From NCBI GenBank assembly GCA_050010455.1, contig JBEKLA010000002.1:1-50596 (forward strand): a stretch of DNA of 50,596 nt, given 5' to 3'. The notes below the pieces were generated by a model. That model was not told the DNA's origin. It saw only the letters and a list, made by a program, of their open reading frames with translations, and did not search any database. Shown here piece after piece: positions 10,855-48,374 of this stretch; the first letter of the stretch is position 1, and the number at the start of each line of letters is the position of its first letter. The translations under genes were made by a program, and so were the position numbers. This stretch comes from Candidatus Binataceae bacterium. Lineage in GTDB: Bacteria; Desulfobacterota; Binatia; Binatales; Binataceae.

Positions 10855-10939
10855 GTTGCCTCCGAAGAGGTTCAATTCTCAGCGCCGTAGCGGCTCCGGC
10901 ATCAACGCGCTGCTCCGCTGCCAGGCTCGACGCGCAGCG

Positions 10940-16194: not shown

Positions 16195-16272
16195 GGCGGC
16201 ATCAGGCGCGACGGCGCCGGCGGAATCGCGGAGGGCCGCCAATAGCCGCGCTTGCCCGCTCGAGTTGTTGCT

Positions 16273-17109
16273 ATGAAAGCGTGGGGAGCGCGACGCGCGC
16301 TTGACGAGGCCATCCGCACGCGCAATTTTGCTCGCAACGTGACCGCCGCTCAAGAACCGTCGAGAATTCTGATCTTCTATGCGTTTGCGCGCGAGCTCGC
16401 CCATTTCAAGCACAGGCTCGAAGCTCGCTCCGCGCTCGAGACCGAAGGACTGCACGGCTTGCGCGGCCGTATCGGGAAAGCGGAGCTCACGCTGGTAGCC
16501 ACCGGGATGGGAGCGATGCGCGCCCGCCAGACCGCTCACCGCGCGCTTGAGATCTTTTCCGGCACGAAGCTGATCATCTCCGCCGGTGTCGCTGGCGCTC
16601 TGTCCGAAGGGCTTGAACCCGGTGACGTAATCATCGCCGATCGGCTGCTGCTTGGCGGCAAGGAAAGCTTCAGGGCCGATCACATTCTGGCGCTTGAGCC
16701 GGAGCAGGTGCGCGCCGCCGAGTACGCGATGCGCGAAGCGAAAGTGCGCTTCGCTACGGGCGCGATGCTTACGGCCAGCCGAGTGCTGGCAGACAGCGCG
16801 GCCAAGCGTCTTGCCAAGGAACAGAGTGGCGCGATCGCGGTTGATATGGAGAGCGCGGTGCTGGGCCTCGAGGCCGCGGCGCGCGGCATCCCGTTCGTGT
16901 GCGTGCGCGCGGTGCTCGATACCGTTGATGACGAGATCCCGGCGGCAGAACTCGGCGCTGCCGACGGCCGGGTAAGGCCGCTCGCAGCCACCGCATTCCT
17001 GGTTCGCCATCCTGCGACGATACTCAAGCTGCCGCGGCTGATGCGCAATCTGTCCCGCGCGACTGCTCGTCTGGCAGACGCTCTAGACGCGATAACTCGA
17101 AACGCCTGA
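16273..17109 (+). CDS. hpnG: Hopanoid-associated nucleoside phosphorylase/nucleosidase
   Basis: TGMG, ISAGVAGAL..L.PGDV, AVDMES, VRAVLD (PNP/MTA-SAH nucleosidase fold) plus hopanoid context; start uncertain (16273 or GTG 16339). Confidence 0.78.
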   Translation: MKAWGARRALDEAIRTRNFARNVTAAQEPSRILIFYAFARELAHFKHRLEARSALETEGLHGLRGRIGKAELTLVATGMGAMRARQTAHRALEIFSGTKLIISAGVAGALSEGLEPGDVIIADRLLLGGKESFRADHILALEPEQVRAAEYAMREAKVRFATGAMLTASRVLADSAAKRLAKEQSGAIAVDMESAVLGLEAAARGIPFVCVRAVLDTVDDEIPAAELGAADGRVRPLAATAFLVRHPATILKLPRLMRNLSRATARLADALDAITRNA

Positions 17110-25566: not shown

Positions 25567-26664
25567 TTAGGGTATCACCGCGCACTTCAGAATCGCGCCG
25601 CGCTCGAGCAACTCGAACATCTCGCCCAACTCGCTCAGGCGCCGGCGGGCGTTGATGATTCGTCCGGCGTTGAGGGTCCTGTCGCGCAGCATCTCGAAGG
25701 CGAGCTTGACATCGCGGGGGCGGAAATGAAACGGCGCCAGCAGACTCAGATTGTCGTAATGCATCCGCCGCGTATCGACGCTCAGGCTGGTGTTGGCGGG
25801 GCATCCTCCGAAGAACACCACGCGTCCGCCGCGTCTCACCCAGCGCATCGACTCCTGCCATCCCGCGACCTGGCCGGTCGATTCGATCACCAGGTCGGGG
25901 CCGTGGCCGCCATTGAGGCGTGACATCTCGTGGGCGAGATCGGCTCGATCGATATCGATCACGAGATCGGCGCCCAGTTCGGCGGCCTTCTTGAGGCGAT
26001 TCTGTCGGCGGCCGGCGATCACCACCTGGCTTACGCCACGGGCCTTGAGCACGAGCAGATGCAACAGGCCAAACGGTCCCGCTCCCAGAATCAAGGCGGT
26101 TTCGAATTTCTCGGCGCGTGCCATCTCTTGAGCGTGGAGCACGCAGGACAGCGGTTCGAGCAGGGCTGCTTCTTCAAACGTCAGCGATGCGGGCTTCTTG
26201 AACGCGTTGCGCGCGACCACATGCGGCGGCAACAGGAGATAGTCGGCATAGGCGCCCAGCACCATCTGCTCCATGACTTGGGGGCAGAGATTCTCCTGAC
26301 CGCGATTGCAGTGGAAGCAATCGCCGCAGGGCGCCGTCGGCGCGGCCATGACAGAGTCGCCCACTTCGAACTTGTTCACGCCCTCGCCGACCTCGACCAC
26401 CACGCCTGAAAATTCGTGTCCGAACAGCGTCGGCAGATGGAACAGCGGATGGCCGCGGCGGAAGGTCTTCAAGTCTGTGCCGCAACTGAGCGCGCATTTG
26501 ATCGCGATCAGAACCGCGCCGGGTCCGGGACTGGGCGGTTCGAACTCGCGCAACTCCAAGCGGCCAGGGGCGACCAGCACCGCCTGACGCGGCCGTCCGG
26601 TCTCCGTCCACGTGCCCGCACGAGGCGGGCGATGATCGATTGCGATCGCGGCTTGATTATTCAC
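25567..26664 (-). CDS. Zinc-binding medium-chain dehydrogenase (polyol/sorbitol dehydrogenase-like)
   Basis: CGTD, GHEFSG, CGDCFHC..GQENLC structural Zn site, GAGPFG; GTG start overlaps ispA stop. Confidence 0.9.
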   Translation of the reverse strand: MNNQAAIAIDHRPPRAGTWTETGRPRQAVLVAPGRLELREFEPPSPGPGAVLIAIKCALSCGTDLKTFRRGHPLFHLPTLFGHEFSGVVVEVGEGVNKFEVGDSVMAAPTAPCGDCFHCNRGQENLCPQVMEQMVLGAYADYLLLPPHVVARNAFKKPASLTFEEAALLEPLSCVLHAQEMARAEKFETALILGAGPFGLLHLLVLKARGVSQVVIAGRRQNRLKKAAELGADLVIDIDRADLAHEMSRLNGGHGPDLVIESTGQVAGWQESMRWVRRGGRVVFFGGCPANTSLSVDTRRMHYDNLSLLAPFHFRPRDVKLAFEMLRDRTLNAGRIINARRRLSELGEMFELLERGAILKCAVIP

Positions 26665-27720: not shown

Positions 27721-28731
27721 TCAAGAGATGTAATGACGCACCATCTGCCACGTGTCCTTCAGGTTCTTGCCGAAATCGAGCGCCACCGTTCCTTCGAAGC
27801 CCGAATGCAACTTGCAGTTGCGGCAGCGGATATCCTGCCTGGTCCGATAGAACTCCCAATCCGTGGCCGCGTGCATTTCTTTGAACGTCCGATAGTGACC
27901 GTTCGTTATAAGATAGCATGGACCCTTCCAGCCCTGCGGATTGCGCGTCACCGTCGTCCACGGGCTGCACAAGAGGTCACGCTCGCCGGCCAGAAACTGG
28001 AGATATATCGGGGTGTTGATAATCTTGTGATCGGAAGCGAGCTGCTTGATCTGCTTGAACTTGTACGGCATCTCGTCTGCTTTCAGATAGATGTCGTCGT
28101 TGGCGAGCACCTGATAGTGGTAGCCGGGCGTGAGCAGCATGCCGTCAACCCGCAGCCCCGTCAGCATCTGGATTAGCTCTTCAATTTCGTTGGAGCTGGT
28201 ATCGCGGAAAATCGTGGTATTGGTCTGGACCCGATAGCCCAGTTTCTTGAGCAGCTCGATCATCCGAACGCAGGTATCGAACACACCGTCACGATCCACG
28301 ACGCGATCGTGGGTTGACTTCATGCCGTCGATATGGATGTTGAAGCTGAGATAGGCGTTGGGCTCGACCTGCTTGACGAATCGTTCAAGCAACAGCGCGT
28401 TGGTACAGATCTGAACGTGGCGTTTGCGCTCGATCAGCCCTTTAGTGAGCGGCACGATATGCTTATACATGAGCGGCTCGCCGCCGCAGATCGAAACGAT
28501 CGGCGCGCCCGCCTCCTCCGCTGCCCCCAGCGCCTCTTCGAGCGGCATCTGATCGCGGATCGTGTCTTTGTACTCGACGATCCGCCCGCATCCGACACAG
28601 GCCAGATTGCAGGCATGCAAGGGCTCGAGCATCAGCACGATCGGAAAATATTTTTCGCCGGCCCGCTTCTTGGCGTTCATGTAGCGGGCCAAGTCAACCA
28701 TAAACCTTATAGGAACACGCATTTTCCCCAA
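27721..28731 (-). CDS. hpnH: Adenosyl-hopene transferase (radical SAM)
   Basis: VLMLEPLHACNLACVGCG, GGEPL, CSPW...GWKGPCYL, C..CKLHSGFE. Confidence 0.93.
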   Translation of the reverse strand: MGKMRVPIRFMVDLARYMNAKKRAGEKYFPIVLMLEPLHACNLACVGCGRIVEYKDTIRDQMPLEEALGAAEEAGAPIVSICGGEPLMYKHIVPLTKGLIERKRHVQICTNALLLERFVKQVEPNAYLSFNIHIDGMKSTHDRVVDRDGVFDTCVRMIELLKKLGYRVQTNTTIFRDTSSNEIEELIQMLTGLRVDGMLLTPGYHYQVLANDDIYLKADEMPYKFKQIKQLASDHKIINTPIYLQFLAGERDLLCSPWTTVTRNPQGWKGPCYLITNGHYRTFKEMHAATDWEFYRTRQDIRCRNCKLHSGFEGTVALDFGKNLKDTWQMVRHYIS

Positions 28732-28758: not shown

Positions 28759-29397
28759 TCAAGCTGCGCCAGCGGCCCCGGCCTCCGGCGCTTCGGGTGC
28801 CCCCTGGAACAAAAGCCCGGAGAGCATTTCGACCGGCCCCTGAAGATCGAAATCGGGCTTGCGGATAAACAATAGTTCGAGCAGGAAGCCGTTTAGCGCC
28901 GACAACAGGAAGCTTATCGTGCGCTCCGGATCCAGCTTCGACGAGCAAATTCCCTTGGCTTGGGCGCGACGAAACAGGTCAACCAACAGGCTCTGGTAGC
29001 CCTCGTAAAGCATGCGAATCTGGCTGGTAACGGCGTCAGGCACGTCATCGTCGTTCAGGATCCGGGTCAGGAAGAAGCGTACCGAGTTCGCGTTCTCGCG
29101 CACGAAGAGCAGGTACGATTCGATCAGCCGCCGCAATTGCGCGCGCTCGTCCAGTTCCCGTGATTCTTCGGCGAAATCGATATAATAGGGTTCGAGGAGC
29201 CGATTCAGCACCGCGATAAACAGCTCTTCCTTGGTCTTGAAGTGCCAGAAAATCAGCGCTTTGCTGACCTTGGCCTCACGCGCCACTTCCGCCATCGAAG
29301 TCTCATGAAAACCCCGTCCGGCAAAGATCTGCGTCGCGGCCTTTAGGATGTCATCCCGGGATTCCTGCGATTGTGCCCGCGATACGGCGCCAGTCAT
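28759..29397 (-). CDS. TetR/AcrR family transcriptional regulator
   Basis: ILKAATQIFAGRGFHETSMAEVAREAKVSKALIFWHFKTKEEL helix-turn-helix. Confidence 0.93.
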   Translation of the reverse strand: MTGAVSRAQSQESRDDILKAATQIFAGRGFHETSMAEVAREAKVSKALIFWHFKTKEELFIAVLNRLLEPYYIDFAEESRELDERAQLRRLIESYLLFVRENANSVRFFLTRILNDDDVPDAVTSQIRMLYEGYQSLLVDLFRRAQAKGICSSKLDPERTISFLLSALNGFLLELLFIRKPDFDLQGPVEMLSGLLFQGAPEAPEAGAAGAA

Positions 29398-29524: not shown

Positions 29525-29608
29525 TAACCTAGCGGTCAATGGCACACTTTTACCTTGCTCGATCGCAAAGTCAAGAGCCCGTCCGAGCGGTCAGTGACCG
29601 ATCGGTTA
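29525..29608 (-). promoter_or_regulatory. Putative tetR/hpn promoter with three palindromic operator-like 14-mers (29525-29538, 29580-29593, 29595-29608)
   Basis: TAACCTAGCGGTCA, CGTCCGAGCGGTCA and TGACCGATCGGTTA flank a minus-strand TTGACT (29574-29569) and a TAAAAGT -10-like element. Confidence 0.65.
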
Positions 29609-29646: not shown

Positions 29647-30702
29647 TTAACTGCTCAAATCAATCGATGAGCCATCGGAATCATTAGATTGTCTTGCCGC
29701 GAGTATCAGAACTAAAGCTGTTCTCGCCTCTATGATATTGCTGGCGGCCGCACGCGGATTGGCGCCGGTCAACACGCTCTCGAACTCGGCGGCGAGATTA
29801 CCGAACCAGGCCGAATGATAGGAATCGTCGGGTGCGTCGGCGACCGACAGGTCTTCGCGCTTGCCTGACTGAGAGGTCAAAATGACGTGGTCGCCCTCGA
29901 TTTCCAGGATAGCCTTGCTGCCGTAAAGCATCGCCGACGTGCGGCGCACCGGCGCGCGCCACGACAGATGGACGTAACCGATTCGTCCGTCACCGAATCC
30001 GATGCCGAGGTCGGCAACCTCGTCGATTCCGCTTTCGCGATCGACGCCCAGGCGGGCGCTGATCGTCTCGGGCGCCCGATGGCCCATCAGCCAGTGCATC
30101 AGGTAGAAGATGTGCCATCCGTGATCGATCAGGATTCCGCCTCCGCTTGCCGCGCTGAGCCGCCACGGCGTCGTGCTCGGATGGCTCGCAGAGCTTCCGT
30201 GCGTGGATACCTCTGAAACGCCGCGTGCCTGTTCGGTTCGCAATCGGATCAGCGAGACATAGCGAAGCGCGCCGAGCCGGTCCTGAGCGACCAATTCGCC
30301 GGCCAATCGATAGGCCGGGGCATGCTTCCAGTTATGCACACAGAAGAGCGTGCGATTTCGCGAAGCGGCTAGCGCGGCCAAGCGGTCAAATTCTTCGAGG
30401 CTCAGGCAGAGCGGTTTTTCTATCAGCACGTGCACGCCCGCCTCCAGCGCCAGACGGGCAGCGGCGGGGTGATAAGCGGGTGGGCTTGCGATATCGAGGA
30501 AGTCGAGATGCTCGCCGTTGAGCATCAGTTCCAGATCCTCGTAGACCCGGACGTTGCGGATAAGTTTGAGCGCCTCGTGGCGCCGCTCGGCAAGCGGTTC
30601 GTGCACCGCGACGATTTCAACGTCCGGCCGCGTGCGCCATCCCGGCAGATGGCCCAGCGCCGCCACCTGGCCGAAACCCGATATCGCACCGCGCAGCTTC
30701 AT
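29647..30702 (-). CDS. Gfo/Idh/MocA family oxidoreductase
   Basis: ISGFGQVA..GH, HVLIEKPL, GGGILIDHGWH. Confidence 0.9.
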   Translation of the reverse strand: MKLRGAISGFGQVAALGHLPGWRTRPDVEIVAVHEPLAERRHEALKLIRNVRVYEDLELMLNGEHLDFLDIASPPAYHPAAARLALEAGVHVLIEKPLCLSLEEFDRLAALAASRNRTLFCVHNWKHAPAYRLAGELVAQDRLGALRYVSLIRLRTEQARGVSEVSTHGSSASHPSTTPWRLSAASGGGILIDHGWHIFYLMHWLMGHRAPETISARLGVDRESGIDEVADLGIGFGDGRIGYVHLSWRAPVRRTSAMLYGSKAILEIEGDHVILTSQSGKREDLSVADAPDDSYHSAWFGNLAAEFESVLTGANPRAAASNIIEARTALVLILAARQSNDSDGSSIDLSS

Positions 30703-30711
30703 CCGTTCGGT

Positions 30712-31581
30712 TCAGCGGCCAAGGCCCCACTGATGGGCCAGTTGTTCCAGCGCTTCTCCGGCGTTGCCCCGCTCCAGGCTCGGCGAATCGAGCACTAATC
30801 GATGGCAGCCCGCGTCACGGTACAAGGCGATCGCGCGTTGCGGATCGCCGTCGACTTGCGGGAAGTAGACCGAGATTTCCATACGGCTGAAATCGCGGCC
30901 CGCTTCAGCGCACATCTTTTTGAGCTTGGCGAGTTCCGTGGCCAGCCGATCGGGCGGCATTCTCAGCGGCGCCCATCCGTCGCCGATCGCAACCGTGTAT
31001 TTGAGCGCGCGATCCACGGGGCCGAGACCGCCCGCGCCGATATGAATCGGTGGATGCGGCTTTTGCGCCGGCTTCGGATAGGAGAACACCGGCGGAAACT
31101 TGACGAACTCGCCCTCGAAGGAGGCCTCGGGTTTGGTCCACAGCTCCTTCATCGCGCGGACGTAGTCGCGCGTGATGGCCCATCGCTTCGAGAAGTTGAC
31201 GCCCATGACCTCAGATTCGTCGATCAGCCATCCGGCGCCGATTCCGAGAATCAGGCGTCCGCCGCTGTAAAGGTCGAGCGTCGCGATTTCCTTGGCGAGG
31301 CCGATCGGCTCGTGCTCGGGTATCAAACAGACGCCGGTGCCGAGGATAAGTCGCTTGGTGGCGCTGGCGGCAAAGGCCAATCCGATGAACGGATCGACCA
31401 TGCGGGTATACATCTCCGGGATTTTGCCGTCGCCGACAGGGTAGGGCGTCTTGCAGTGAACGGGAATGATCGGATGCTCTGGAAGGAAGAACGACTCGAA
31501 GCCCAGCGCCTCGCATTTTTTCGCCACGGTTGCGGGATCGGGACTCTTGGGTGTGATCCAGGCCAGGATTCCGATTTTCAT
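30712..31581 (-). CDS. LLM-class (probably F420-dependent) oxidoreductase
   Basis: GFESFFLPEH, DPF, LGTGV, ATLD..SGGRLILGIGAGW, PKPAQKPHPPIHIG; start at ATG 31581. Confidence 0.9.
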   Translation of the reverse strand: MKIGILAWITPKSPDPATVAKKCEALGFESFFLPEHPIIPVHCKTPYPVGDGKIPEMYTRMVDPFIGLAFAASATKRLILGTGVCLIPEHEPIGLAKEIATLDLYSGGRLILGIGAGWLIDESEVMGVNFSKRWAITRDYVRAMKELWTKPEASFEGEFVKFPPVFSYPKPAQKPHPPIHIGAGGLGPVDRALKYTVAIGDGWAPLRMPPDRLATELAKLKKMCAEAGRDFSRMEISVYFPQVDGDPQRAIALYRDAGCHRLVLDSPSLERGNAGEALEQLAHQWGLGR

Positions 31582-31674
31582 ATGTCCTCCGCGCGGCATT
31601 CAGTGCCGCCCATTGAAATCGTGATGCTTGCTGGCGCGATCGCTGACCGCGTCACCATTGCGCCGCAGCGCCGA

Positions 31675-32154
31675 TCATTGACCGAAGCCGAAGAAATCCT
31701 TCGCGTAGATGAACTCGCCGACGCCCGCGTTGCGTGCGCATTCGGCGTCAACCTCCTGGTCGCCGACCATCGTCGATCCGGCCAGATCGATTCCGAAGGT
31801 CTTGGCGAGCTCTTTGATCATGCCGGGCTTGGGCTTGCGGCATTCGCATCCGTCGCTCGGCTGATGAGGACAGATCCGCCATCCGAACAGGACTCCGCCG
31901 AGTTGGCGATCGAGCTCGGTCATCGCGGCCTCGGCCTTTTCCACCGTGAAGCGGCCGCGTGCGACTCCGGCCTGATTGGTGACGACACAGATGAGGGCGT
32001 CGCGAATCGGACGAAGCTTGTCGGCCACTCCCGGCAGCAGCTCGATCTGGATATTGCCGGCGGCGTCCATCGGCAGTTCGCGGTTATGGTCAAACCTGAC
32101 CAGCGTTCCAACCAGATCGCAGAACAGCGCGCGGTTTCCGCTTTCGCCCGCCAT
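31675..32154 (-). CDS. HAD-IIIA phosphatase (GmhB/HisB-N-like)
   Basis: FCDLVGTLV, VTNQAGVARG, CPH..CECRKPKPGM, VGDQEVD. Confidence 0.88.
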   Translation of the reverse strand: MAGESGNRALFCDLVGTLVRFDHNRELPMDAAGNIQIELLPGVADKLRPIRDALICVVTNQAGVARGRFTVEKAEAAMTELDRQLGGVLFGWRICPHQPSDGCECRKPKPGMIKELAKTFGIDLAGSTMVGDQEVDAECARNAGVGEFIYAKDFFGFGQ

Positions 32155-32157
32155 TGC

Positions 32158-33522
32158 CTATGCCTCCGTCCGCCAGTCCAGATGGTCGCGCACGTAGGCG
32201 CACACTTCGTCGAGGATCGCGATCCCGGCCTCGGCCTGTGCTTCAGTAATCACCAGCGGTGGATTCAGCCGCACGTGCGGGAAGTAGCCCATCATCAGCA
32301 GGCCGCGCTTGAGCGCTTCCTTGAAGATGATTTCGGTTACTTTGCGGCTCATCTCGTGCTTGGTCTTGCGATCGCGCACCAGTTCGACTCCAATTAGCAA
32401 GCCGCGCCCGCGCACGTCGCCGATAAACTCGTACTTCTCTTTGAGTTCGAGCAGCCGCTTGAGCATCAGTGCGCCGACTTTGCGCGAGTTCTCGACCAGA
32501 TTGTCGCGTTGAATTGTGCGGATAGTTTCGGTTACGGCCACCGCTGCCAGCGGATTGCCGCCGTAACTCGACGAGGACGCGCTTGGCTTCGCAAACGGCT
32601 CCGCGGTAGCGAGGTCGTCGCCCAGAAGCACGCCCGAAACCGGATAACCCGAGCCCATGCCCTTGCCCACGGTCATGATATCGGGCTCGACGCCGCTATG
32701 TTCGACGCCCCACATCTTGCCGGTGCGTCCGAAGCCGGTGATCATTTCGTCGGCGATCAGCAGTGCGCCGTTGTCGCGCGCGATCTCTTTGACCGCGGGC
32801 AGGAAATCGTCGGGCGGAATCACGTTGCCGGCCGTGCCCTGGAACGGTTCGATAATCACCGCGGCCAGCGCGCCGCTCGAGCTATGCCTGAGCTGGTCAC
32901 GCGCGAACTCGACACAGAATAATCCGCACTCGGGATAATCGAGCTTGAACGGGCATCGATAACAATCGGCATACGGCACCGAGAACTGGCCGCCCGGCAG
33001 CGGCCCGTAGCCCCCCTTCGATTCGTCGCCGATCAGTCCGATAACGCCGCCAGTCTTGCCGTGGAAGCCGCCCCAGAAGCTCAGCACCTCGTGCTTCTTG
33101 GTGGCGCAGCGCGCCAGGCGCAAAGCCGCCTCGACCGCCTCGGCGCCGCCGCTATACAGATGGGAACGCTTGAGCCGGCCCGGCGCGACCTCGCCCAGCA
33201 GCCTGAAAACTTCCGCCCGCTCGGGCGTGGCGAAGGTGCCGACCATCAGGCGCGACGCTTGCGCCGATAACGCCTGAGCCAGACCCGGATGGCCGTGGCC
33301 GAGGGCCGCGACCGCGACGCCGGCAAAAAAATCGACGTAGACGTTGCCGTCCATGTCGGTCAGCGTCGCGCCGTCGCCGCGTTCGAAGGCGATACCCGCG
33401 AGCAGCGAAATGCGCTGGCGGCCAGGCGCAATATGACGCTGCTCGGCCTCGAATACTTGGCGCGACTTGGGGCCGGGAACCGGGACAGAAATCTTGGGAA
33501 GCTTTTCGCTTTTTACGCTCAT
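32158..33522 (-). CDS. Class III PLP-dependent aminotransferase
   Basis: [42 protein letters not shown] (PLP lysine), RGRGLLIG. Confidence 0.92.
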
Positions 33523-33535
33523 CCTGTGCGGGTGC

Positions 33536-34396
33536 TCATCCTCGTGTGACCGGCACCCTTATTCCTTTCGATTTTGAAGCGGCGTGAGCATACAGATCGA
33601 GGCATCGGCGCGCGATCGCTTGCGCGGCCTGCGCGCGTACCCGGCTGAAGCTCGGCCAGTCGTTAAAATCAATGATCGTGAAACCACGGTCGTTTACTAT
33701 AGCGTCGCCGCCCCATATTTCGAGCCCCAAAGCTGAAGCGGCGGCCTTTGCGGCGTCGGCCAGGGCTTGTTCGATCGACGAGGGAAGCGTTCCGCCGTCG
33801 CTGACGGCGGCAAAATATCCGCCGCCGCTGACCCCGTAGAACTTAACCACCGCTCCGTCAACCGCCTGTTGCAAATAGGCGGATTTAACCCCACGCGCGG
33901 CAAAACGTTCGATCACGGAGTGAAGCCGATCCGCGCTTTCAACTTTGACCACGTCTTCGGCGGTGAGGGCGTGCAGATCGCCGCGCTTGACGAAAACGCC
34001 GGCGCCGAGATCGAAGCGAGCGATCGATTGCGGCTCGACTATCGCGGATGTCCTTACCAGCAAGCCTGCGGGAGTTGGCACATCGGCTGCCTCCAGCGCG
34101 GCGCCGAGCCGATCGCGATAGCAAGCGCGAATCGCGCGCGGCGAATTGATCACCAAACCGCTGATTTCCTCGAGCGCGGCGAGTTTGCTCAACGCTCGTT
34201 CGCTCTGGCACATCGCAAGCACGAGATCGTAGCGTGCGGGCGTGGCTGTGACGAAGCTGTCGGCGTCGAGCGCCGAGATCTGAGCTTGGTCCGCTTTGAA
34301 ATGATCCAGCACCGAATCGAGGATGCCGGCGTCGTCGCCGACTTTACCCGGCGAGAACTCGGTCTCGCGGTAAACTCCGAGGATTCGCAACGTCAT
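33536..34396 (-). CDS. ATP-grasp-like protein of unknown function
   Basis: VINS, VFVKRGD, YLQQAVDG..VKFYGV, GGDAIV, IIDFNDWPSF (RimK/Ddl-like pattern). Confidence 0.7.
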   Translation of the reverse strand: MTLRILGVYRETEFSPGKVGDDAGILDSVLDHFKADQAQISALDADSFVTATPARYDLVLAMCQSERALSKLAALEEISGLVINSPRAIRACYRDRLGAALEAADVPTPAGLLVRTSAIVEPQSIARFDLGAGVFVKRGDLHALTAEDVVKVESADRLHSVIERFAARGVKSAYLQQAVDGAVVKFYGVSGGGYFAAVSDGGTLPSSIEQALADAAKAAASALGLEIWGGDAIVNDRGFTIIDFNDWPSFSRVRAQAAQAIARRCLDLYAHAASKSKGIRVPVTRG

Positions 34397-35145
34397 CTGC
34401 CGCTCCGCGGCGCGGGAGCGCCTTGGCGCCGATTCTCGCCTTCCACCATCGCGCGCGCCGCTTCGAGGTCCGCGGCCTCATCGATATCTATCGTTTCGCC
34501 GAGTTCGATCGCTTTCAAACGCCGTCCGTTCGCGACCAGATAGGAAAGGAACTGCCGCAGCGCTCCGCATCCGGATTCGCGCGCTCGCGCTGCGAAGTCG
34601 AAGATGCGAGTCGAGAAAACGTACACTCCAGCAGTAACCATCGACGCACGCTCGTCACCGAACGATTCGATCAGACCGCTGTTCGAGACGCTGACGAAAA
34701 GCGGGCGATGGTCGCCGCGCCAGCGCACCACTCCGAGCACACCGTCGAGAGCAGGCTCGGACTCGACTATCGCGAACGCGCCACTCGCGAAGCGTTCGAG
34801 TTCGCCCGGCGCCGTTACCGCATCGACGGTGGTGAGCAGGAAATAGCCCGGCGCAAGCCGCTCGCCCAGCGCGAACAGCGTCTCCATCGAGTTTGGCGTA
34901 TCGCGCACCGAGAGCATCAAGCCGTCGGGAATTGCGATCGCGTTTGCTGCGCGCAATCGCTCGGTCTCCGAATTGATCACGGCCAACACGCGTTCCGCGC
35001 CTGCCGCGATCAGCGCGCGCGCCTGCCGTATCAGCATCGGCTGGCCGGCGATCTCGACCAGCGGTTTGGGCAGCGCTTGTCCGCCCGCGCGCAATCGCTC
35101 GCCGTGTCCCGCGGCGATTATCGCGCCCTCGAAGCGCGCTACCAT
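34393..35145 (-). CDS. Sugar/polyol-phosphate nucleotidyltransferase
   Basis: AIIAAGHGERL...PKPLV, TAGVY, DIDEAADL; start at ATG 35145. Confidence 0.85.
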   Translation of the reverse strand: MVARFEGAIIAAGHGERLRAGGQALPKPLVEIAGQPMLIRQARALIAAGAERVLAVINSETERLRAANAIAIPDGLMLSVRDTPNSMETLFALGERLAPGYFLLTTVDAVTAPGELERFASGAFAIVESEPALDGVLGVVRWRGDHRPLFVSVSNSGLIESFGDERASMVTAGVYVFSTRIFDFAARARESGCGALRQFLSYLVANGRRLKAIELGETIDIDEAADLEAARAMVEGENRRQGAPAPRSGR

Positions 35146-35879
35146 CGAAGCTCCGTCAATTCGCGCAACTCGCTGATGATGTGATCGACGAGGCTTGCGT
35201 CTGCCTCGCGAATGGCTCTGCCATCCGACGACGTCCTTAGCCACACCGCGCGCATGCCGAGGCGGCGCGCCGGGAGGCAATCCTTATCCAGGGAATCGCC
35301 GACGATCGCGACTTGCGCGGCCGGGAGCGCGAATGCCGTGAGCGCGGCCTCGAAGATGCGCGGATCGGGTTTGAAGAGATTCACGCGTGTCGAATCAATA
35401 ACGATCTCGAACAATTCGCCCATCCGCGCTTGCGCCAGGATGCGATCGAGATTGCCGTAGAAATTAGATATCACGCCGAGGCGGAAATCTCGCGCAAGGG
35501 TTGTGAGCACCTCGCGGCTCGACGCCAATCCGCGATTCGTCTCCTCGACGAAGCCGGCGCTGATTTTTTCCGCCAGCGCATCGCGCCCTCCGTCGGCCGC
35601 TCTGACTTGCGCGCGAACCGGCTCAGGCCCGCGGCTCGACAGGTAATCTAGCTGTGCATCGACCAGGAATCGCACGAGTTCGCCAAGTCCCCGCTCGCGC
35701 ATCGCCGGGCCCGCTCCATAGCCGGCGTCGGTGCCGCAGGCGAACGCCGGGTCAAGCTCCTCGCGGGTGATGACGACGCCGGCGCGGCGATAGTTCGCCA
35801 GGAAGCGATCGAGCCAGTGGCTGCCGGGCAAATCGATCGTGCCACCGAAGTCGAACAAAAGCGCGCTTGGAGTCTTCAC
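35139..35879 (-). CDS. HAD-family hydrolase
   Basis: LFDFGGTID, ISNFYGN, KPDPRIF, VGDSLDKD. Confidence 0.88.
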   Translation of the reverse strand: MKTPSALLFDFGGTIDLPGSHWLDRFLANYRRAGVVITREELDPAFACGTDAGYGAGPAMRERGLGELVRFLVDAQLDYLSSRGPEPVRAQVRAADGGRDALAEKISAGFVEETNRGLASSREVLTTLARDFRLGVISNFYGNLDRILAQARMGELFEIVIDSTRVNLFKPDPRIFEAALTAFALPAAQVAIVGDSLDKDCLPARRLGMRAVWLRTSSDGRAIREADASLVDHIISELRELTELRW

Positions 35880-36064
35880 GGTTGCGTAGACATTAGCAGT
35901 CAGTAATCTCCGCCTCTAGGCGGGTAGCCGCAGCTAATAGTATCGGATAGGCTCCAAGCTGTTTTTTGAATCGCGCGCGCCGACGATCCCGACTGGATTA
36001 AAATCGAGTTTGCGGCAACGAAACCCTCTTGCCGAGAGCCATTACTTGTAACAATACTGATATT

Positions 36065-36109
36065 CGACCGCTCGGTCAGCCTACGTTGATTTGCCTGACC
36101 GATTGGTCT
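36065..36109. promoter_or_regulatory. Two operator-like 14-mers in the divergent intergenic region (36065-36078, 36096-36109)
   Basis: CGACCGCTCGGTCA and TGACCGATTGGTCT match the palindrome upstream of tetR. Confidence 0.65.
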
Positions 36110-36154
36110 AGGAGGTGCGTCTAAAATGATTTATTACAAAGTTTCAAGAACGGC

Positions 36155-37345
36155 GTGAAAAACGCGCTAATCTTCTCCGCGCCTGCGGGCGCCCAGACGC
36201 TATTCGGTCGCCCTCTGCTTGAGCGCGCTTTGACTCACTGCGAGCGAGCGGGAATCGACCGTTTCTTCGTTATTTGTCCGATTGAGCAGAGCTCGCAGCT
36301 TTCCTCGACCCTCGGACGCTTCGAGCGCGACGCGCGATTGAAAATAGTCGACTCAACAGACAATGTATTGCTTGAACCGAGCAGCTTGAAGGAGCCGTGC
36401 CTGGCGATCGGTGCCGACGTAGTCTTTGCGCGCTCTCAGATCAATATGTTGTTGCGCCATAGCGAGGCCAATCCCGGCGAAATTGCACAGATTCCGGTCA
36501 AGGATGGCGGGCCGGATTCTGTCCTGGCGGTCGGGCCGCTCGGCGAGATGCTCAAACGATCCGGAGCGTCGAAATCGCTCGCTGCGGGTCTCGATGGGAC
36601 GCTGCCGTTCGCCCTCGAAGCTAACCCCGGAGCGAACGCGCGAGCGGAAGTGGCGATGGCGCGGGTGCTGCGCTTCGAAACGGTCGAAACCGACGGCCTG
36701 ATGGCGCGTATAATGGATCGCAAAATCTCGTGGCGGCTCAGTTATCAGCTGGCGCGAACCGCGGTGACACCGAATCAAATCACGATTGCCAACACCGTCT
36801 TCGGCCTGATCGCCGCCTGGATGTTTGCCGGACACGGATACTGGCTGCCCTTGCTCGGATCGCTGTTGTTCCTGGCGTCGGTGACGATCGACGGAGTGGA
36901 CGGCGAGGTCGCGCGGCTCAAGATGGCGGAGTCGCCATTCGGCAAGCGGCTCGACGTGATCACAGACAATATCGTCAACGTCGCGGTTCTGGCCGCTATA
37001 GGAATAGGATGTTATCGACACAGTGGCAGCAAGACCTACCTTTATCTGCTGCCATTGTTCCTCGGCGGTTTCGCATCTTGCGCGGTAGCCGTCCAGCGCG
37101 CGTTGAACGTATGTGGAGCGCAAGCCGAAGGCTGGATCGGGCAAGTGGAAAGAATCTGCGGGCGCGATTTCGCCTACCTGTTGGTGGTGATGGCGGCGAT
37201 TAACCGCCTCAACTTCGTCGCCTGGGGAACCGCTTTCGGCACCTATGTTTTCGCCATCGGATTGTCGTGGATGACGAACAACCACGTGCGGTTCGCGGCC
37301 GGCGTCGCCGCGCCTGAGCGGCCCGTGGCGGCAGAGGGATTATGA
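36155..37345 (+). CDS. CDP-alcohol phosphatidyltransferase with degenerate N-terminal nucleotidyltransferase-like domain
   Basis: TPNQIT, D..DGEVARLK..ESPFGKRLD..TD signature, TM helices; N-terminus LFGRPLLERAL..C.RAGI. Confidence 0.88.
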   Translation: MKNALIFSAPAGAQTLFGRPLLERALTHCERAGIDRFFVICPIEQSSQLSSTLGRFERDARLKIVDSTDNVLLEPSSLKEPCLAIGADVVFARSQINMLLRHSEANPGEIAQIPVKDGGPDSVLAVGPLGEMLKRSGASKSLAAGLDGTLPFALEANPGANARAEVAMARVLRFETVETDGLMARIMDRKISWRLSYQLARTAVTPNQITIANTVFGLIAAWMFAGHGYWLPLLGSLLFLASVTIDGVDGEVARLKMAESPFGKRLDVITDNIVNVAVLAAIGIGCYRHSGSKTYLYLLPLFLGGFASCAVAVQRALNVCGAQAEGWIGQVERICGRDFAYLLVVMAAINRLNFVAWGTAFGTYVFAIGLSWMTNNHVRFAAGVAAPERPVAAEGL

Positions 37346-38670
37346 ATAAAAAACCGAGGATTCTCCTCGTTCAACCTACAACGGTTCATCTCGACGGCAC
37401 GCCCCATAAGACGCGATGGCGGCTGATCATGGGGCTGATGATCCCGCTGATAGCGGGACTAACCCCTGAGGATTTCGACGTTACGCTGTGCGACGAACGG
37501 CTCGAGGAGATCGACTTCGACGCCGGATGGGATCTGGTCGGCATGACCACCACGATCGGGGCGTCGCTGCGCGCCTACCAGCTCGGCGACGAATTCCGCA
37601 AACGCGGCATCCCGGTGGTGATGGGGGGCTTTCACGCCACGCTCCAGACCGACGAGGCGCTCAAGCACGCCGACGCGGTGGTGCAGGGCGAAGCCGACAC
37701 GGTGTGGGAGCCGCTGCTGCGCGATTGGCAGGACGGCAAGCTCAAGCAAATTTACAAGGCCGACAAGCTCCACGATTTGAAGAACCTGCCGCGCCCGCGC
37801 CACGAGTTGCTGAAGCTCAACCGTTACCTGTTCAAGGCGGTGCCGATTCAGGCCAGTCGCGGATGTCCCTATCGATGCTCGTTCTGCGAGATTCCGGTCT
37901 TTTACGACGGCTCGTACCGCACCCGCCCGATCGGGGATATCATTGAAGAAATCAAACAGGTGATGGAAATCACTGGCTTTCGCCGCTTCCAGTTTATCGA
38001 CGATCAGATCACCGGCAAGCACAAGTTTGCACGCGAGCTGTTCCGCGCCCTGGAGCCGCTCAACATCCGCTTCTCGTGTCTGTGGACGATCAATTCCAAT
38101 CACGACGACGAGCTGCTCGAACTGGCGGCCAAGGCCGGCGTCTTCCACGTCAATATCGGCGTGGAATCGATCAGCCAGGACAGCCTGATGTCGATGAACA
38201 AGATTCAAAATCACGCCAAGCAGTACAAGGAACTGCTCGCCAAGCTGAAGCGGTACGGAATCTACTACTCGCTCAATTTCCTGTTCGGGCTGGAGAACGA
38301 CGGTCCCACGATCTTCGACGATACGCTCAAGTTCCTGGACGAGGTCAAGGCGCCCGAGGCGTTCTTCAACACCGTCACACCGCGCCGGGGCACTCCGATG
38401 CGCCAGCAGCTCGAGGACGAGGACCGCGTCATCATTCCCGACGCCGACATGTACACCAACAACTTCCGCTGCATGTTCGTGCCCAGGAATCTCTCGCCGC
38501 AGGAGGTCGAAGAGGGCGTGTGGCGGTGCAACACCGAATTCTATTCGCTCAAGTCGATGTTCAAGCGGCTGCTGATGCCGCCCAGCAAATTCACCTGGCA
38601 GGGGCTTACCGAGAACGCGCTGTTTTACTGGGGCGCCAAGCAGCGAATCGATCCGGTCGATTATTACTGA
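37342..38670 (+). CDS. B12-binding-domain radical SAM protein
   Basis: GIPVVMGGFHAT..GEAD cobalamin-binding region, SRGCPYRCSFC CxxxCxxC, FIDD, GVES; start overlaps upstream stop. Confidence 0.92.
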   Translation: MNKKPRILLVQPTTVHLDGTPHKTRWRLIMGLMIPLIAGLTPEDFDVTLCDERLEEIDFDAGWDLVGMTTTIGASLRAYQLGDEFRKRGIPVVMGGFHATLQTDEALKHADAVVQGEADTVWEPLLRDWQDGKLKQIYKADKLHDLKNLPRPRHELLKLNRYLFKAVPIQASRGCPYRCSFCEIPVFYDGSYRTRPIGDIIEEIKQVMEITGFRRFQFIDDQITGKHKFARELFRALEPLNIRFSCLWTINSNHDDELLELAAKAGVFHVNIGVESISQDSLMSMNKIQNHAKQYKELLAKLKRYGIYYSLNFLFGLENDGPTIFDDTLKFLDEVKAPEAFFNTVTPRRGTPMRQQLEDEDRVIIPDADMYTNNFRCMFVPRNLSPQEVEEGVWRCNTEFYSLKSMFKRLLMPPSKFTWQGLTENALFYWGAKQRIDPVDYY

Positions 38671-40178: not shown

Positions 40179-40541
40179 GTGGCAGGCAAGTTTTGCGTAT
40201 CGTTGACCTTCGCCAAGGACAACACCGACAAGGCTACAGTGGCGTTCGTAGTTGCCAACGCGGCGGTCGGCTCCGAGCAGGAAACGATCGTTTTCCTCAG
40301 CAGCGAGGGGGTGCGGCTGGGCGTCAAGGGCTATGCGGACGACATCCGTGAAGAAGGCTTCGCACCGCTGAAAGACCTGATGGCGAGTTTTGCCGATGCC
40401 GGCGGCACCATCTATGTCTGCTCGCCGTGCTTTAAGCGCCGGGGCCTCGATGAAAATAATCTGGTTGCCGGGGCGAAGATCGTGGGCGGCGCCAAGCTGG
40501 TCGAGTTTCTCGCCAGCGGCGCGGCGTGCGTCTCCTACTGA
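40179..40541 (+). CDS. DsrE/DsrF-like family protein
   Basis: DKATVAFVVANAA, FLSSEGV, GGTIYVCSPC..RGL, IVGGA; AGGAGG RBS. Confidence 0.88.
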   Translation: MAGKFCVSLTFAKDNTDKATVAFVVANAAVGSEQETIVFLSSEGVRLGVKGYADDIREEGFAPLKDLMASFADAGGTIYVCSPCFKRRGLDENNLVAGAKIVGGAKLVEFLASGAACVSY

Positions 40542-42139
40542 GTCGAGGGAGAAGACTAGTTACGACGGATTCCAAAGAACCGCGCACGCGCCATCCGTAC
40601 GCGCCCGACGCGAGCTTCGACGGCGGCGACCTCGATTGTGGCAGCGGGCTGCTGCTGCTGATCCGCAAGCATATCGATCCACTGGCGCCGGGCCAGTTGC
40701 TCGAGATTCGCTCAACCGAGTTGTCGGTGCGCGAGGATCTGCCGGCGTGGTGCCGATTAACGCGCAACGAACTGGTGTCCGAGATTCGTGACGGCCGGCT
40801 CGGCAGCTATCTGGTATCGAAGGGACCGTTCACGCCGCGCGCATCCATCGCGCGAGAACCGGATGCGGACGCGGCGAATCAGGAATCGCGCATCAGGACG
40901 CCGGCGCCCGTAACTCAGGCAATCAAGGCGGTTACGATTCCCGCCACGCTGCCCGAACCCGCAGCGGTGCCCGCGATCCGGCCGCTCTCGGTGATCGGTA
41001 TCGGCAGTTGGCCGCGCCCGCGCTGGATGCTGCAGGCGCTGCACGATTATCACGAAGGCCGGCTGAGCGAAGAGGCGTTTCAGGAGACCGCGAACGACGC
41101 GGTGCTTCTCGCGATCGATGCGCAGCTTCGCGCCGGCGTGGACGTCATCACCGACGGTGAGCAGCGGCGCGACAGCTACGCCAGCTTCGTCGGCGGCATA
41201 CTCGACAACTGTCAGCTCATCCCGGTAACCGACCTGCTTCCCTACGTTGATCATCCCGACGAGTTCGAAGAACAGTTGCGCGCGCTCGACGTCCCCGCCG
41301 GCAAGGTGCTGCATCCCGCCGTCTTCGGCCCGCTCGGACGCAGCCGCCCGCTCGCGGTGCACGAATTGGAGTTCGCGCGCGGAATTTCGAGCCTGCCGGT
41401 GAAGGTTGCGCTGCCGGGACCGTACCTGCTGACGCGCACGATGTGGATGGAGTGCATTTCGGACCGCGCCTACGCTCGCCGCGAGGATCTGGCGGAAGAC
41501 ATTGTGCGCGTGCTGCGCGAGGAGCTGCATTACCTGCTTGCGGCCGGCGCGGCGATCGTGCAATTCGACGAGCCGGTGCTGACTGAAGTAGTGTTCGGCA
41601 AGCCGCCTGGCCAACGCACGTTCATGTGCGGCGCGCTGGGCGCGCGGATGGATACCGCCGCGGAGCTGGCGTTCGCGGAAGCGCTCATCAACCGCGTCGT
41701 CGACGGCCTCCCGCGCGATCGGATCGCGCTGCATATCTGTCGCGGCAACTGGAGCCCGGACGAACGCGTCGCGCTGGCGGGTGATTATCGGCCGCTGATA
41801 CCTCTTCTGTCGCGGGTCAAGGTCGGCACGCTGTTTCTCGAACTGAGTACGCCGCGCGCGGGCGAGGCGAGCGTGCTTCGCGACCTTCCCGCCGATCGTC
41901 GGATAGGCGTCGGCGTCGTTAACCAGAAATCCGCGCGCGTCGAGACGGTGGAGGAGATTGTCGCCGCGACCGAGCGCGCAATCGCTATCTTCGGAGCAGA
42001 ACGATTATTGCTCACCCCGGATTGCGGCTTCGCGACCTTTGCCGACAATCCGATCGCGTCGTCCGATATCGCCGAGAAGAAACTTGCCGCGATCGTTCAG
42101 GCCGCGCATGTCCTGCGGCGCAAGTACAATCTCGACTGA
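40526..42139 (+). CDS. Fusion of a TusA-like domain and a single-barrel cobalamin-independent methionine synthase (MetE C-terminal-like) domain
   Basis: FDGGDLDCGSG..EDLPAWCR, then IGSWPRP, VITDGEQRR, QFDEP, HICRGN, LELS, PDCGF (Zn ligands H/C/E/C); start uncertain. Confidence 0.85.
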   Translation: MRLLLSRGRRLVTTDSKEPRTRHPYAPDASFDGGDLDCGSGLLLLIRKHIDPLAPGQLLEIRSTELSVREDLPAWCRLTRNELVSEIRDGRLGSYLVSKGPFTPRASIAREPDADAANQESRIRTPAPVTQAIKAVTIPATLPEPAAVPAIRPLSVIGIGSWPRPRWMLQALHDYHEGRLSEEAFQETANDAVLLAIDAQLRAGVDVITDGEQRRDSYASFVGGILDNCQLIPVTDLLPYVDHPDEFEEQLRALDVPAGKVLHPAVFGPLGRSRPLAVHELEFARGISSLPVKVALPGPYLLTRTMWMECISDRAYARREDLAEDIVRVLREELHYLLAAGAAIVQFDEPVLTEVVFGKPPGQRTFMCGALGARMDTAAELAFAEALINRVVDGLPRDRIALHICRGNWSPDERVALAGDYRPLIPLLSRVKVGTLFLELSTPRAGEASVLRDLPADRRIGVGVVNQKSARVETVEEIVAATERAIAIFGAERLLLTPDCGFATFADNPIASSDIAEKKLAAIVQAAHVLRRKYNLD

Positions 42140-47150: not shown

Positions 47151-48374
47151 TCAGGCGATCGCAGCGCTTAGCTCTTCTGTTCGGCGAGAGCCGTTCGAGC
47201 CAAGGACAACCTCAGCCAGCCGGTCGGCCACGTCGCTCTCTGTGTGCTTGAGGAAGTGGGAGTAAACCTGCAGGGTGATCGCCGGATTGGCGTGACCCAA
47301 GCGATGCTGGACTTCCGTGACCGGTGCCCCAGCCGCGATCATGGCTGAGGCACAACTATGACGCAACGTGTGGAAGGTCACGCGCCGCAACCGCGCCCGT
47401 GAAAGGGCCGGGTAGAAGCTGACCCGCAGCAGCCAGTCCCGGCATATGGGTTTCCCTTCGGACGACGAGAAGACAAGGTCCTCCTCGGACTTCGGGCACT
47501 GCAGTTTCCAGCGCTTCAGATCGGCAACCAGCGGCGCAGCAATCGATATCGTGCGGCGGCCTGCCTTGGTCTTGGGCGGGAAGTAACGCGGGCGAGTTTC
47601 TTCCCCCTTAAGCCGCGCCCACGAGAGGCTGCGGCGGATCGTTATCTTGCCCGGCCCCTCCTTGGGCAGTTCAAGATCGCTCCAGCGCAAGGCGAGTAGC
47701 TCTCCCTCGCGCGCTCCGGTCAAATAGGCGGCCTCGAACAGCACTCGCTCGAACCCCGGTTGAGCCGCCCGCAACAACAACTGAATCTCGGCCGGGCTCA
47801 GCACGTTGTCGGGGTCAACCGTGTCGTTGCTGGCATCAGCGGCATCTTCGCCCGCCTTTAGTTCTTTCGCGACCTGTACCGCGCGCTCCACGCTGTCCAC
47901 AGGATTCTTCGCGCACTGGCCGCGTTTGATCCCGAGCTTAAAGACCGCACCCATGATCCTCAGGATGGTGTTGATGGTGCGGTGCGCATAGCCGCGATCA
48001 CGCAGATCGTCTCGCAGCTTCTCGACCTCGGCTAGCCTGATCGTGTCCAGGCGCCTCGTGCCGAAGAGGGGAATCAGGTGCTTGTCGAGACGTGTGCGGA
48101 GATCTGAGACGTGAGAAGGGCGGCGATCAGTCTTGCTCCGAAACCAGTCCTCGGCGACCTCCGCGAAGGTCGGCACCTTGGCCGGTTCGACGTACTCGCC
48201 GCGCGCGGCCTGGAGCGCCGTTTCCGCGAGGAATCGCTCGGCGGCCTTTTTAGTCTTGAAACGCACTCGCCGCCGCGGGCCGTACATGCCCAGCGGGCGA
48301 TAGTCCAGCGCCCACAGGCAATCGCAATCGCCACCATTGCAATTGGGCAGGTGAAATTTCTTAATGCTTGCCAT
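47151..48374 (-). CDS. int: Tyrosine recombinase / phage-type integrase
   Basis: Catalytic set LTGAREGEL (R), PKTK (K), FHTLRHS (HxxR), LGH, VYSH (Y); N-terminal arm-binding-like region. Confidence 0.95.
   Translation of the reverse strand: MASIKKFHLPNCNGGDCDCLWALDYRPLGMYGPRRRVRFKTKKAAERFLAETALQAARGEYVEPAKVPTFAEVAEDWFRSKTDRRPSHVSDLRTRLDKHLIPLFGTRRLDTIRLAEVEKLRDDLRDRGYAHRTINTILRIMGAVFKLGIKRGQCAKNPVDSVERAVQVAKELKAGEDAADASNDTVDPDNVLSPAEIQLLLRAAQPGFERVLFEAAYLTGAREGELLALRWSDLELPKEGPGKITIRRSLSWARLKGEETRPRYFPPKTKAGRRTISIAAPLVADLKRWKLQCPKSEEDLVFSSSEGKPICRDWLLRVSFYPALSRARLRRVTFHTLRHSCASAMIAAGAPVTEVQHRLGHANPAITLQVYSHFLKHTESDVADRLAEVVLGSNGSRRTEELSAAIA

Follow-up and report, generated by a model that had tools for sequence, protein, structure and literature searches.

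A conserved gene cassette adjoining hopanoid genes in Binataceae that may direct the synthesis of an inositol-derived, aminated lipid head group

Phosphodiesters are made by a nucleoside triphosphate (NTP) transferase acting together with a CDP-alcohol phosphotransferase, as in the synthesis of di-myo-inositol phosphate (DIP), phosphatidylinositol (PI) and phosphatidylcholine. A Gfo-type dehydrogenase and an aminotransferase together convert a secondary alcohol to an amine, and ATP-grasp ligases form amides. Hopanoids are major geological biomarkers and modulators of membranes; to our knowledge, it is still open what several of the genes associated with them (HpnL, HpnA) do and how wide the variety of their polar head groups is. 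In Bacteroides and Prevotella, an unconfirmed cluster of NTP transferase, CDP-alcohol transferase and HAD genes lies next to the gene for inositol-phosphate synthase (MIPS), with a gene of the LPG-synthase family nearby, according to the available parts of Heaver et al. 2022 (PMC9246714). Here, a stretch of 50,596 nucleotides from a Candidatus Binataceae bacterium (assembly GCA_050010455.1, contig JBEKLA010000002.1; hereafter the window) was analyzed, which carries at positions 29647-38670 a cassette with the same enzyme classes and several more next to a hopanoid gene cluster. On balance, the cassette appears to be the Binataceae version of a conserved, uncharacterised gene set that makes an inositol-derived, aminated and probably amidated phosphodiester head group for a membrane lipid. 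Among the conceivable carriers a hopanoid is the most likely one, at somewhat less than even chances. This reading was built from gene content, conservation, co-occurrence, gene fusions and folds, from which all pathway steps given below are deduced.

The cassette consists of the following features.

29647-30702, minus strand: Gfo/Idh/MocA oxidoreductase (Gfo; Pfam PF01408/PF22725), with inositol 2-dehydrogenase as best weak match (TIGR04380, 61.8 bits against a cut-off of 355)
30712-31599, minus strand: F420-type luciferase-like (LLM) oxidoreductase (TIGR03619, 241.9 bits with the cut-off at 166.9)
31675-32154, minus strand: HAD-IIIA protein, GmhB/histidinol-phosphatase-like (TIGR01656, 98.5 bits with the cut-off at 84.15)
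32158-33522, minus strand: class-III (omega-type) aminotransferase (PF00202, 324.8 bits; none of the NCBIfam equivalog cut-offs is reached)
33536-34396, minus strand: ATP-grasp enzyme of 286 amino acids from an unnamed family (no Pfam match; assigned by a weak RimK/LysX match and by fold)
34393-35280, minus strand: open reading frame of an NTP transferase of the sugar/polyol-phosphate type (PF12804/PF00483), its likely start being the ATG at 35145 as judged from the alignment
35139-35879, minus strand: HAD-IA protein (PF00702/PF13419)
35880-36154, no strand: promoter region between the divergent genes, with an inverted repeat resembling an operator at 36066-36108
36155-37345, plus strand: CDP-alcohol phosphotransferase (CDP-OH_P_transf, PF01066) with a degenerate cytidylyltransferase-like N-terminal domain
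37342-38670, plus strand: probable B12-binding radical SAM enzyme (PF04055, 70 bits; the B12-binding domain PF02310 scores 31.2 bits, slightly below the cut-off of 32.1)

With the NTP transferase starting at 35145, the successive junctions on the minus strand measure -7, -4, +13, +3, +75 and +9 bases, and the stop codon of the phosphotransferase gene overlaps the start of the radical SAM gene. The nine genes had been put forward in an earlier note on this DNA; their open reading frames lie exactly where it had placed them, and the families obtained from Pfam, NCBIfam and fold comparison agree.

To describe conservation within the family, the proteins of the window were mapped by tblastn in 80 related loci. 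The HAD-IIIA, aminotransferase, ATP-grasp, NTP transferase and HAD-IA genes together with the divergent phosphotransferase and radical SAM genes form a seven-gene core, which is complete and in the same order in 65 of the 66 related loci that have room for it. In Binataceae loci with at least 9 kb on both flanks, the core was complete in 50/50. This arrangement is far from chance. Gfo, LLM, tetR and hpnH adjoin the core in about half of the Binataceae loci. The core has the hopanoid block on its other side in two loci (L029 and L064) and housekeeping genes as neighbours in one (L024). LLM was found in 41/80 loci with 43-74% identity and HAD-IIIA in 66/80. The aminotransferase is 73-91% identical within Binataceae and 52-58% identical in other families. 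Where shc and the phosphotransferase gene lie on one contig, they are at most 25 kb apart in 55/58 genomes, with a median distance of 13.9 kb.

A smaller set of genes extends far beyond the Binataceae. In an even sample of 201 genomes from the phylum-level group, the ATP-grasp enzyme, used as a marker (E<=1e-15), was found in 17 genomes of nine families and a homologue of the phosphotransferase (E<=1e-30) in eight. Genes for HAD-IA, NTP transferase, ATP-grasp enzyme, aminotransferase and Gfo follow each other in the same order in seven families (f13, f14, f33, f49, f57, f58 and f74), and a partial set is present in f41. The neighbourhoods of this five-gene set are as follows.

G121 (f13): hpnH, MIPS and the five genes on one strand
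G073 and G107 (f57): hpnA, hpnH and the five genes
G028 (f33): hpnH, the five genes, a second CDP-alcohol transferase, HpnL-like, OEP, HpnN-like (533 bits) and HpnM-like genes
G045 (f49): the five genes, a CDP-alcohol transferase, HpnM-like and HpnN-like genes
G145 (f74): HpnN-like and HpnM-like genes and the five genes
G122 and G088 (f14): phosphotransferase, the five genes and an HpnL-like flippase-family gene, with MIPS on the opposite strand
G074 (f58): MIPS between the NTP transferase and ATP-grasp genes
G036 (f41): ATP-grasp, MIPS and Gfo genes adjoining
G083 (f49): a homologue of the B12 radical SAM enzyme (39% identity) within the cassette

SHC is encoded in 14 of the 17 marker genomes compared with 41/201 overall, and MIPS likewise in 14/17 compared with 121/201. 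The same three marker genomes gave neither SHC nor MIPS; their completeness is 79%, 62% and 85%, and other members of their genera have SHC. The genomes from which the loci L035, L037 and L080 derive, looked at with regard to other phyla, yielded nothing further. Several proposals of the earlier note are supported by these data. The link to hopanoids is seen in synteny and in co-occurrence with shc and hpnH, the latter standing directly before the five-gene set in f13, f33 and f57; the proposed pairing of a dehydrogenase with an aminotransferase is matched by the joint conservation of Gfo and aminotransferase in nine families; and a cyclitol origin is in line with a MIPS gene that lies inside or beside the cassette in f13, f14, f41 and f58 and elsewhere in the genome in the Binataceae bacterium. 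For the latter, the note had stated that MIPS is absent from the window. This was borne out, and a MIPS gene was detected on contig C54 of the same genome with none of the partner genes adjoining it.

Natural gene fusions were found as well. P0248 joins an NTP transferase to an ATP-grasp enzyme (hhalign E 2e-45), P0295 combines a HAD-IA protein (36% identity and the same DFGGT motif) with an NTP transferase and an ATP-grasp enzyme, and P0325 is a fusion of an ATP-grasp enzyme with a phosphotransferase of the type found in the window (E 3e-28). It is therefore argued that HAD-IA, NTP transferase, ATP-grasp enzyme and phosphotransferase act in one pathway. A profile search of 1.84 billion representatives (clustered at 50% identity) returned 496 relatives of the ATP-grasp enzyme at E<=1e-30. 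In a word-index search with the ATP-grasp profile, those named among the 120 best matches listed were Binataceae.

The CDP-alcohol phosphotransferase carries the signature D(x)2DG(x)2AR(x)8G(x)3D(x)3D, with D246, G247, D249, G250, A253, R254, G263, D267 and D271 invariant in 17 sequences. Its best NCBIfam matches are IPCT/DIPPS (NF041135), archaetidylinositol-phosphate synthase (AIPS) and PIP synthase (PIPS), all below their cut-offs. By profile comparison the best solved relatives are AF2299 (E 5e-27), followed by IPCT/DIPPS and PIP synthases. A predicted model (pLDDT 81.6) was aligned over its full length by Foldseek to AF2299 (4o6n) and IPCT-DIPPS (4mnd), and displays a cytidylyltransferase-like N-terminal domain followed by six membrane helices. 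When this N-terminal domain of the model was compared alone, it matched the cytidylyltransferases IspD, TarI and KdsB. The domain reads ALIFSAPAGAQTLFGRPLLER and has no GxGxR, and in the separate NTP transferase the signature GAIIAAGxGxRL...PKPL is invariant in all families aligned. The cytidylyltransferase domain of the phosphotransferase thus looks degenerate, the active one presumably being the product of the separate NTP transferase gene. The joint action of an NTP transferase and a CDP-alcohol phosphotransferase that the earlier note had assumed is consistent with the intact phosphotransferase motif, the resemblance to AF2299 and IPCT-DIPPS, the GxGxR...PK retained in the NTP transferase and the natural fusions. 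A complex prediction for the N-terminal domain of the phosphotransferase and the NTP transferase gave next to no confidence and no support, which is not evidence either way. Four other PF01066 genes are present in the genome (PgsA-like, PssA, a ClsA-like fragment and Pcs-like), none of them of the inositol-phosphate type.

The relationship of the phosphotransferase to AF2299 and DIPPS also bears on the nature of the product. In the available parts of Clarke et al. 2015 (PMC4634129), AF2299 and DIPPS are described as not processing lipids, and soluble acceptors like inositol phosphate are associated with the six-helix architecture, whatever the donor. The cassette might accordingly make a soluble phosphodiester, an amino or amide relative of DIP that serves as a stress solute and is encoded next to hopanoid genes since both contribute to stress tolerance. 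MIPS, NTP transferase, a DIPPS-like enzyme and a HAD protein are indeed the enzyme set of the DIP pathway, and AF2299 and DIPPS share their two-domain architecture and use of soluble substrates. A soluble product is nevertheless improbable: four families have flippase-like (HpnL-type), MMPL/HpnN-like and MlaC/HpnM-like genes within the cassette or next to it, the cassette stands in an operon with hpnH, and the phosphotransferase reaches only 80.2 bits against the IPCT/DIPPS equivalog cut-off of 580.

The ATP-grasp enzyme was modeled with AlphaFold from 15 homologues (pLDDT 90.8). Its top Foldseek matches in the PDB are D-Ala-D-Ala ligase (Ddl), LysX/ArgX, RimK and PsnB. The fold is that of an ATP-grasp enzyme with ligases as nearest structures, and the match in sequence is weak (26.6 bits against a cut-off of 143 for the RimK family). 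Searching the PDB by sequence with the ATP-grasp enzyme gave no match. An inositol kinase of the ITPK1-like type was rejected as the less probable assignment, as the listed fold matches are ligases with no kinase among them. For the aminotransferase, NTP transferase, HAD-IA protein and radical SAM enzyme, PDB sequence searches returned generic relatives only, which give no clue to the substrates.

The two HAD proteins deviate from canonical phosphatases. Neither has the DxDx(T/V) of motif I, and motifs II-IV are present. Motif I of HAD-IA is DFGGT, without the second aspartate, and is the same in the ten sequences aligned, which come from seven families; the nearest solved relatives are dehalogenase-like HAD-IA proteins, which could be aligned only over motifs II-IV. 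In HAD-IIIA, motif I reads DLVGT in the window and DL(V/G/A)GT in homologues, again without the second aspartate, and the CxH...CxC loop is present. Judged by these motifs, the two proteins may not be ordinary phosphatases.

The radical SAM enzyme has its cluster motif CxxxCxxC as CPYRCSFC at residue 175. Across Binataceae loci it is 84-94% identical, compared with 44-69% for its operon partner, the phosphotransferase, and appears to be under unusually strong constraint in this family. Homologues with 45-54% identity occur in f14, f77 and f57, all in genomes with SHC. With the queries used, no hopanoid genes were seen beside the homologues from outside the family, except in G107 (6 kb from shc) and in the G083 cassette. 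Matches in the Protein Atlas were confined to generic B12 radical SAM clusters. Two known hopanoid enzymes were considered and rejected: HpnJ (TIGR03471, 78.4 bits against 577.6), the true HpnJ being encoded on contig C135 of the same genome (G000:C135, 717.8 bits), and HpnR (TIGR04367, 52 bits against 650). HAD-IIIA and LLM are members of the cassette only in Binataceae loci, and the B12 radical SAM enzyme in Binataceae and f49. By this distribution, all three seem to be lineage additions outside the widely conserved set. In a separate observation, a locus from another genus (L088 1-2637, G174:C26) carries three tandem LLM paralogues with 48-63% identity, about 2.7 kb past the HAD-IIIA end of the cassette.

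From these data, the following pathway is proposed. MIPS, encoded elsewhere in the genome, would supply inositol phosphate, and the NTP transferase would convert a polyol phosphate into a CDP-alcohol, from which the membrane phosphotransferase of the AF2299/DIPPS type could form a phosphodiester. Gfo and the class-III aminotransferase would turn a ring hydroxyl into an amine, and the ATP-grasp enzyme may add an amide at this amine or at a carboxylate partner. The two HAD-like proteins would handle a phosphate with atypical chemistry, and the B12 radical SAM enzyme and the F420 oxidoreductase would contribute lineage-specific tailoring.

On the same strand, downstream of the cassette, tetR is followed by hpnH and then by genes for a polyprenyl synthase and a Zn-dependent alcohol dehydrogenase, shc, dxr, hpnC, hpnD, hpnE, hpnA and hpnK. 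The two features next to the cassette are as follows.

28759-29397, minus strand: TetR regulator between the cassette and hpnH (PF00440)
27721-28731, minus strand: hpnH, which encodes the adenosyl-hopene transferase and opens the adjoining hopanoid block (TIGR03470, 380.2 bits with the cut-off at 225)

The hopanoid cluster described in the earlier note is real, as HpnH, HpnA and HpnK all score above their NCBIfam cut-offs and SHC, HpnC/D/E, Dxr and the polyprenyl synthase are encoded with them. Given its linkage with shc and hpnH and its concentration in shc-bearing genomes, the cassette can be counted as a member of hopanoid clusters, with the linkage missing within 10 kb in part of the Binataceae loci (see below). 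A further, tentative proposal is that the products are composite hopanoids of a class so far unrecognised, in which bacteriohopanepolyols bear a phosphodiester-linked, aminated and amidated inositol head group as a hopanoid counterpart of PI. Such lipids would be flipped and exported by HpnL/HpnN/HpnM-type proteins, might be further methylated or rearranged by the Binataceae radical SAM enzyme, and could be widespread among the uncultured bacteria of peat and soil, where standard hopanoid analyses would miss them.

Several observations weigh against, or limit the case for, a head group of this kind on a hopanoid. No hopanoid gene is found within 10 kb in 25 of the 50 Binataceae loci, the core lies 190 kb to 1.8 Mb from shc in 3/58 genomes with both on one contig, and shc and the phosphotransferase gene are on different contigs in 67/125 genomes. 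The co-occurrence of the two within the family is uninformative because both are near-universal (phosphotransferase in 140/151 and SHC in 144/151 family genomes; 133/144 and 137/144 without seven unpublished genomes). Co-occurrence is moreover given as raw counts from related genomes, which are not independent samples. The HpnL-, HpnM- and HpnN-like neighbours all score below the NCBIfam cut-offs, although these models are their best matches. As both HAD proteins are without the general acid/base aspartate, their label as phosphatases is uncertain. The closest solved relatives of the phosphotransferase, AF2299 and DIPPS, act on non-lipid substrates, according to the structural work cited above, and a soluble phosphodiester fits this as well. 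Finally, the aminotransferase could instead be HpnO-like and act on ribosylhopane.

The loci without hopanoid neighbours would also fit a cassette that makes the same head group for an ordinary glycerolipid, an aminated PI-like lipid, and merely shares a membrane-lipid gene island with hopanoid genes. Among solved structures, PIP synthases rank with the nearest relatives of the phosphotransferase, and the 'alternative' cluster of Bacteroides and Prevotella, with its MIPS gene and LPG-synthase homologue, has been proposed for PI lipids in the available parts of its description (PMC9246714). Against this stand the hpnH gene, which is lined up with the cassette in three further families, the HpnN/HpnM-like transporters flanking it and the enrichment of SHC among the marker genomes. 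In the three genomes where the core is far from shc, moreover, the Gfo orthologue (61-63% identity) has remained 1-2 kb from hpnH. A glycerolipid as carrier is thus considered unlikely.

That Gfo stays with hpnH could also point to tailoring of the hopanoid side chain itself. In this case an HpnO-like aminotransferase would make aminobacteriohopanetriol from ribosylhopane, Gfo would oxidise or reduce ribosylhopane, the ATP-grasp enzyme would N-acylate, and the NTP transferase and phosphotransferase would add a separate phospho-alcohol. HpnO is a class-III aminotransferase for which no specific model exists, according to the available parts of a 2025 preprint on hopanoid-associated genes (PMC12324291), the five-gene set directly follows hpnH and hpnA, and the window holds a gene for an HpnG-like phosphorylase. 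Side-chain tailoring is difficult to reconcile with the MIPS gene embedded in the cassette in several families. Furthermore, G107, which also has the cassette, encodes a second class-III aminotransferase 1.5 kb from shc (L099 13846-15045, G107:C10; 29% identical to that of the cassette), a candidate for the true HpnO of this genome. Tailoring of the side chain is accordingly regarded as very improbable, and the inositol-derived head group is retained as the favoured reading.

Operator-like palindromes were found upstream of tetR (29528-29605) and in the divergent promoter of the cassette (36066-36108). Their half-site TGACCGNTNGG occurs six times in the window, where 0.39 occurrences are expected. 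In related loci, the motif adjoins tetR in 28/34 cases and is present in the divergent promoter in only 9/77. Co-regulation of the cassette and hpnH by TetR through a shared operator was therefore rejected as a general feature.

Some genes of the hopanoid block call for a revised annotation. An HpnG-like 'hopanoid-associated phosphorylase' gene (16252-17109, plus strand; 116 bits against a cut-off of 187) overlaps with the hpnK open reading frame (15328-17010, minus strand) along the N-terminal 270 codons of the latter. The 'YdjC fusion' of 560 amino acids is therefore probably an over-extended reading frame and hpnK encodes only about 285 amino acids. The Zn-dependent alcohol dehydrogenase gene (25567-26664, minus strand) lies between shc and the polyprenyl synthase gene, a position kept in L021, L029, L061 and L064. 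It shares about 295 bases with the start of the annotated shc reading frame, and the true start of shc is therefore probably a later one. The dehydrogenase could be a candidate side-chain reductase.

Elsewhere in the window, an Imm5-like immunity-protein gene (10159-10875, minus strand) and, near the right end, a phage-type integrase gene (47151-48374, minus strand) were noted. The reading frame at 40526-42139 on the plus strand has an unusual combination of a weak TusA-like N-terminus followed by a catalytic domain like that of cobalamin-independent methionine synthase. The stretch was detected in DNA runs of peat and soil metagenomes, and there was no RNA run among the listed runs containing it. 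Where homologues of the phosphotransferase bear a name, it is Candidatus Binataceae/Binatus.

No published description of the cassette was found in the literature searched. Judged by titles and the beginnings of abstracts, the literature on hopanoids and CDP-alcohol enzymes held no paper on such a cluster, and that on Binatota hopanoids and Binatia inositol held unrelated papers only. The available parts of the preprint on hopanoid-associated genes do not mention Binat*, nucleotidyl* or phosphotransferase. The kind of pathway, CDP-alcohol head-group synthesis, is known, and there is a credible chance that its product is an undescribed hopanoid or inositol lipid. A gene set that joins hpnH to inositol-phosphate chemistry provides a specific route to a new lipid head group that can be put to the test, and also suggests a substrate for an HpnL-type flippase. 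Its carriers are abundant uncultured bacteria of peat and soil. A phospho-hopanoid, if that is the product, would add a class of biomarkers that current work-ups likely miss; an aminated PI or a solute would extend bacterial inositol metabolism past what is described. Taken together, the earlier interpretation of the cassette is supported as far as comparative genomics reaches, with no element contradicted.

Compared with known systems, the cassette combines features of several. The HpnI/HpnK/HpnJ route to bacteriohopanetetrol cyclitol ether is likewise encoded in hopanoid clusters, places an amino-cyclitol on the hopanoid side chain and employs a B12-type radical SAM enzyme, as described in the available parts of PMC12324291. 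It differs in that it starts from GlcNAc and forms an ether rather than a phosphodiester, and the Binataceae genome has its own HpnJ (C135) and HpnK. The closest published parallel, as far as the available parts of its description reach, is the alternative inositol lipid cluster of Bacteroides vulgatus and Prevotella, which was compared by description only. By enzyme type, an NTP transferase, a CDP-alcohol phosphatidyltransferase and a HAD protein are listed for both, and all three types are present in the window; MIPS is unlinked in this genome and adjoins the set in other families. These parts of PMC9246714 mention no ATP-grasp enzyme, aminotransferase, Gfo or radical SAM enzyme and no hopanoid context. 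The likeness to Bacteroidota inositol-lipid loci that the earlier note had pointed to holds, at the level of enzyme types, for the NTP transferase, the CDP-alcohol transferase and the HAD protein, and does not extend to the ATP-grasp enzyme in the text available.

The IPCT/DIPPS pathway (PDB 4mnd; NF041135) shares MIPS, a cytidylyltransferase, a DIPPS-like phosphotransferase and a phosphatase-type protein with the proposed route. In contrast, the active cytidylyltransferase is separate here, Gfo, aminotransferase and ATP-grasp enzyme are additional, lipid-transport and hopanoid genes are the neighbours, and the hosts are mesophiles of peat and soil. AF2299 of Archaeoglobus fulgidus (PDB 4o6m/4o6n/4q7c) resembles the phosphotransferase in its two domains, in a cytidylyltransferase-like domain without catalytic signature, in an intact DGxxAR...G...D...D and in six long membrane helices. 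It is archaeal, about 18-19% identical, was solved with CDP-glycerol and, in the available parts of its description, is said not to process lipids. Unlike that of AF2299, the gene in the window lies beside hopanoid genes, and its partners there encode a separate, active NTP transferase together with ATP-grasp, aminotransferase, HAD and B12 radical SAM proteins.

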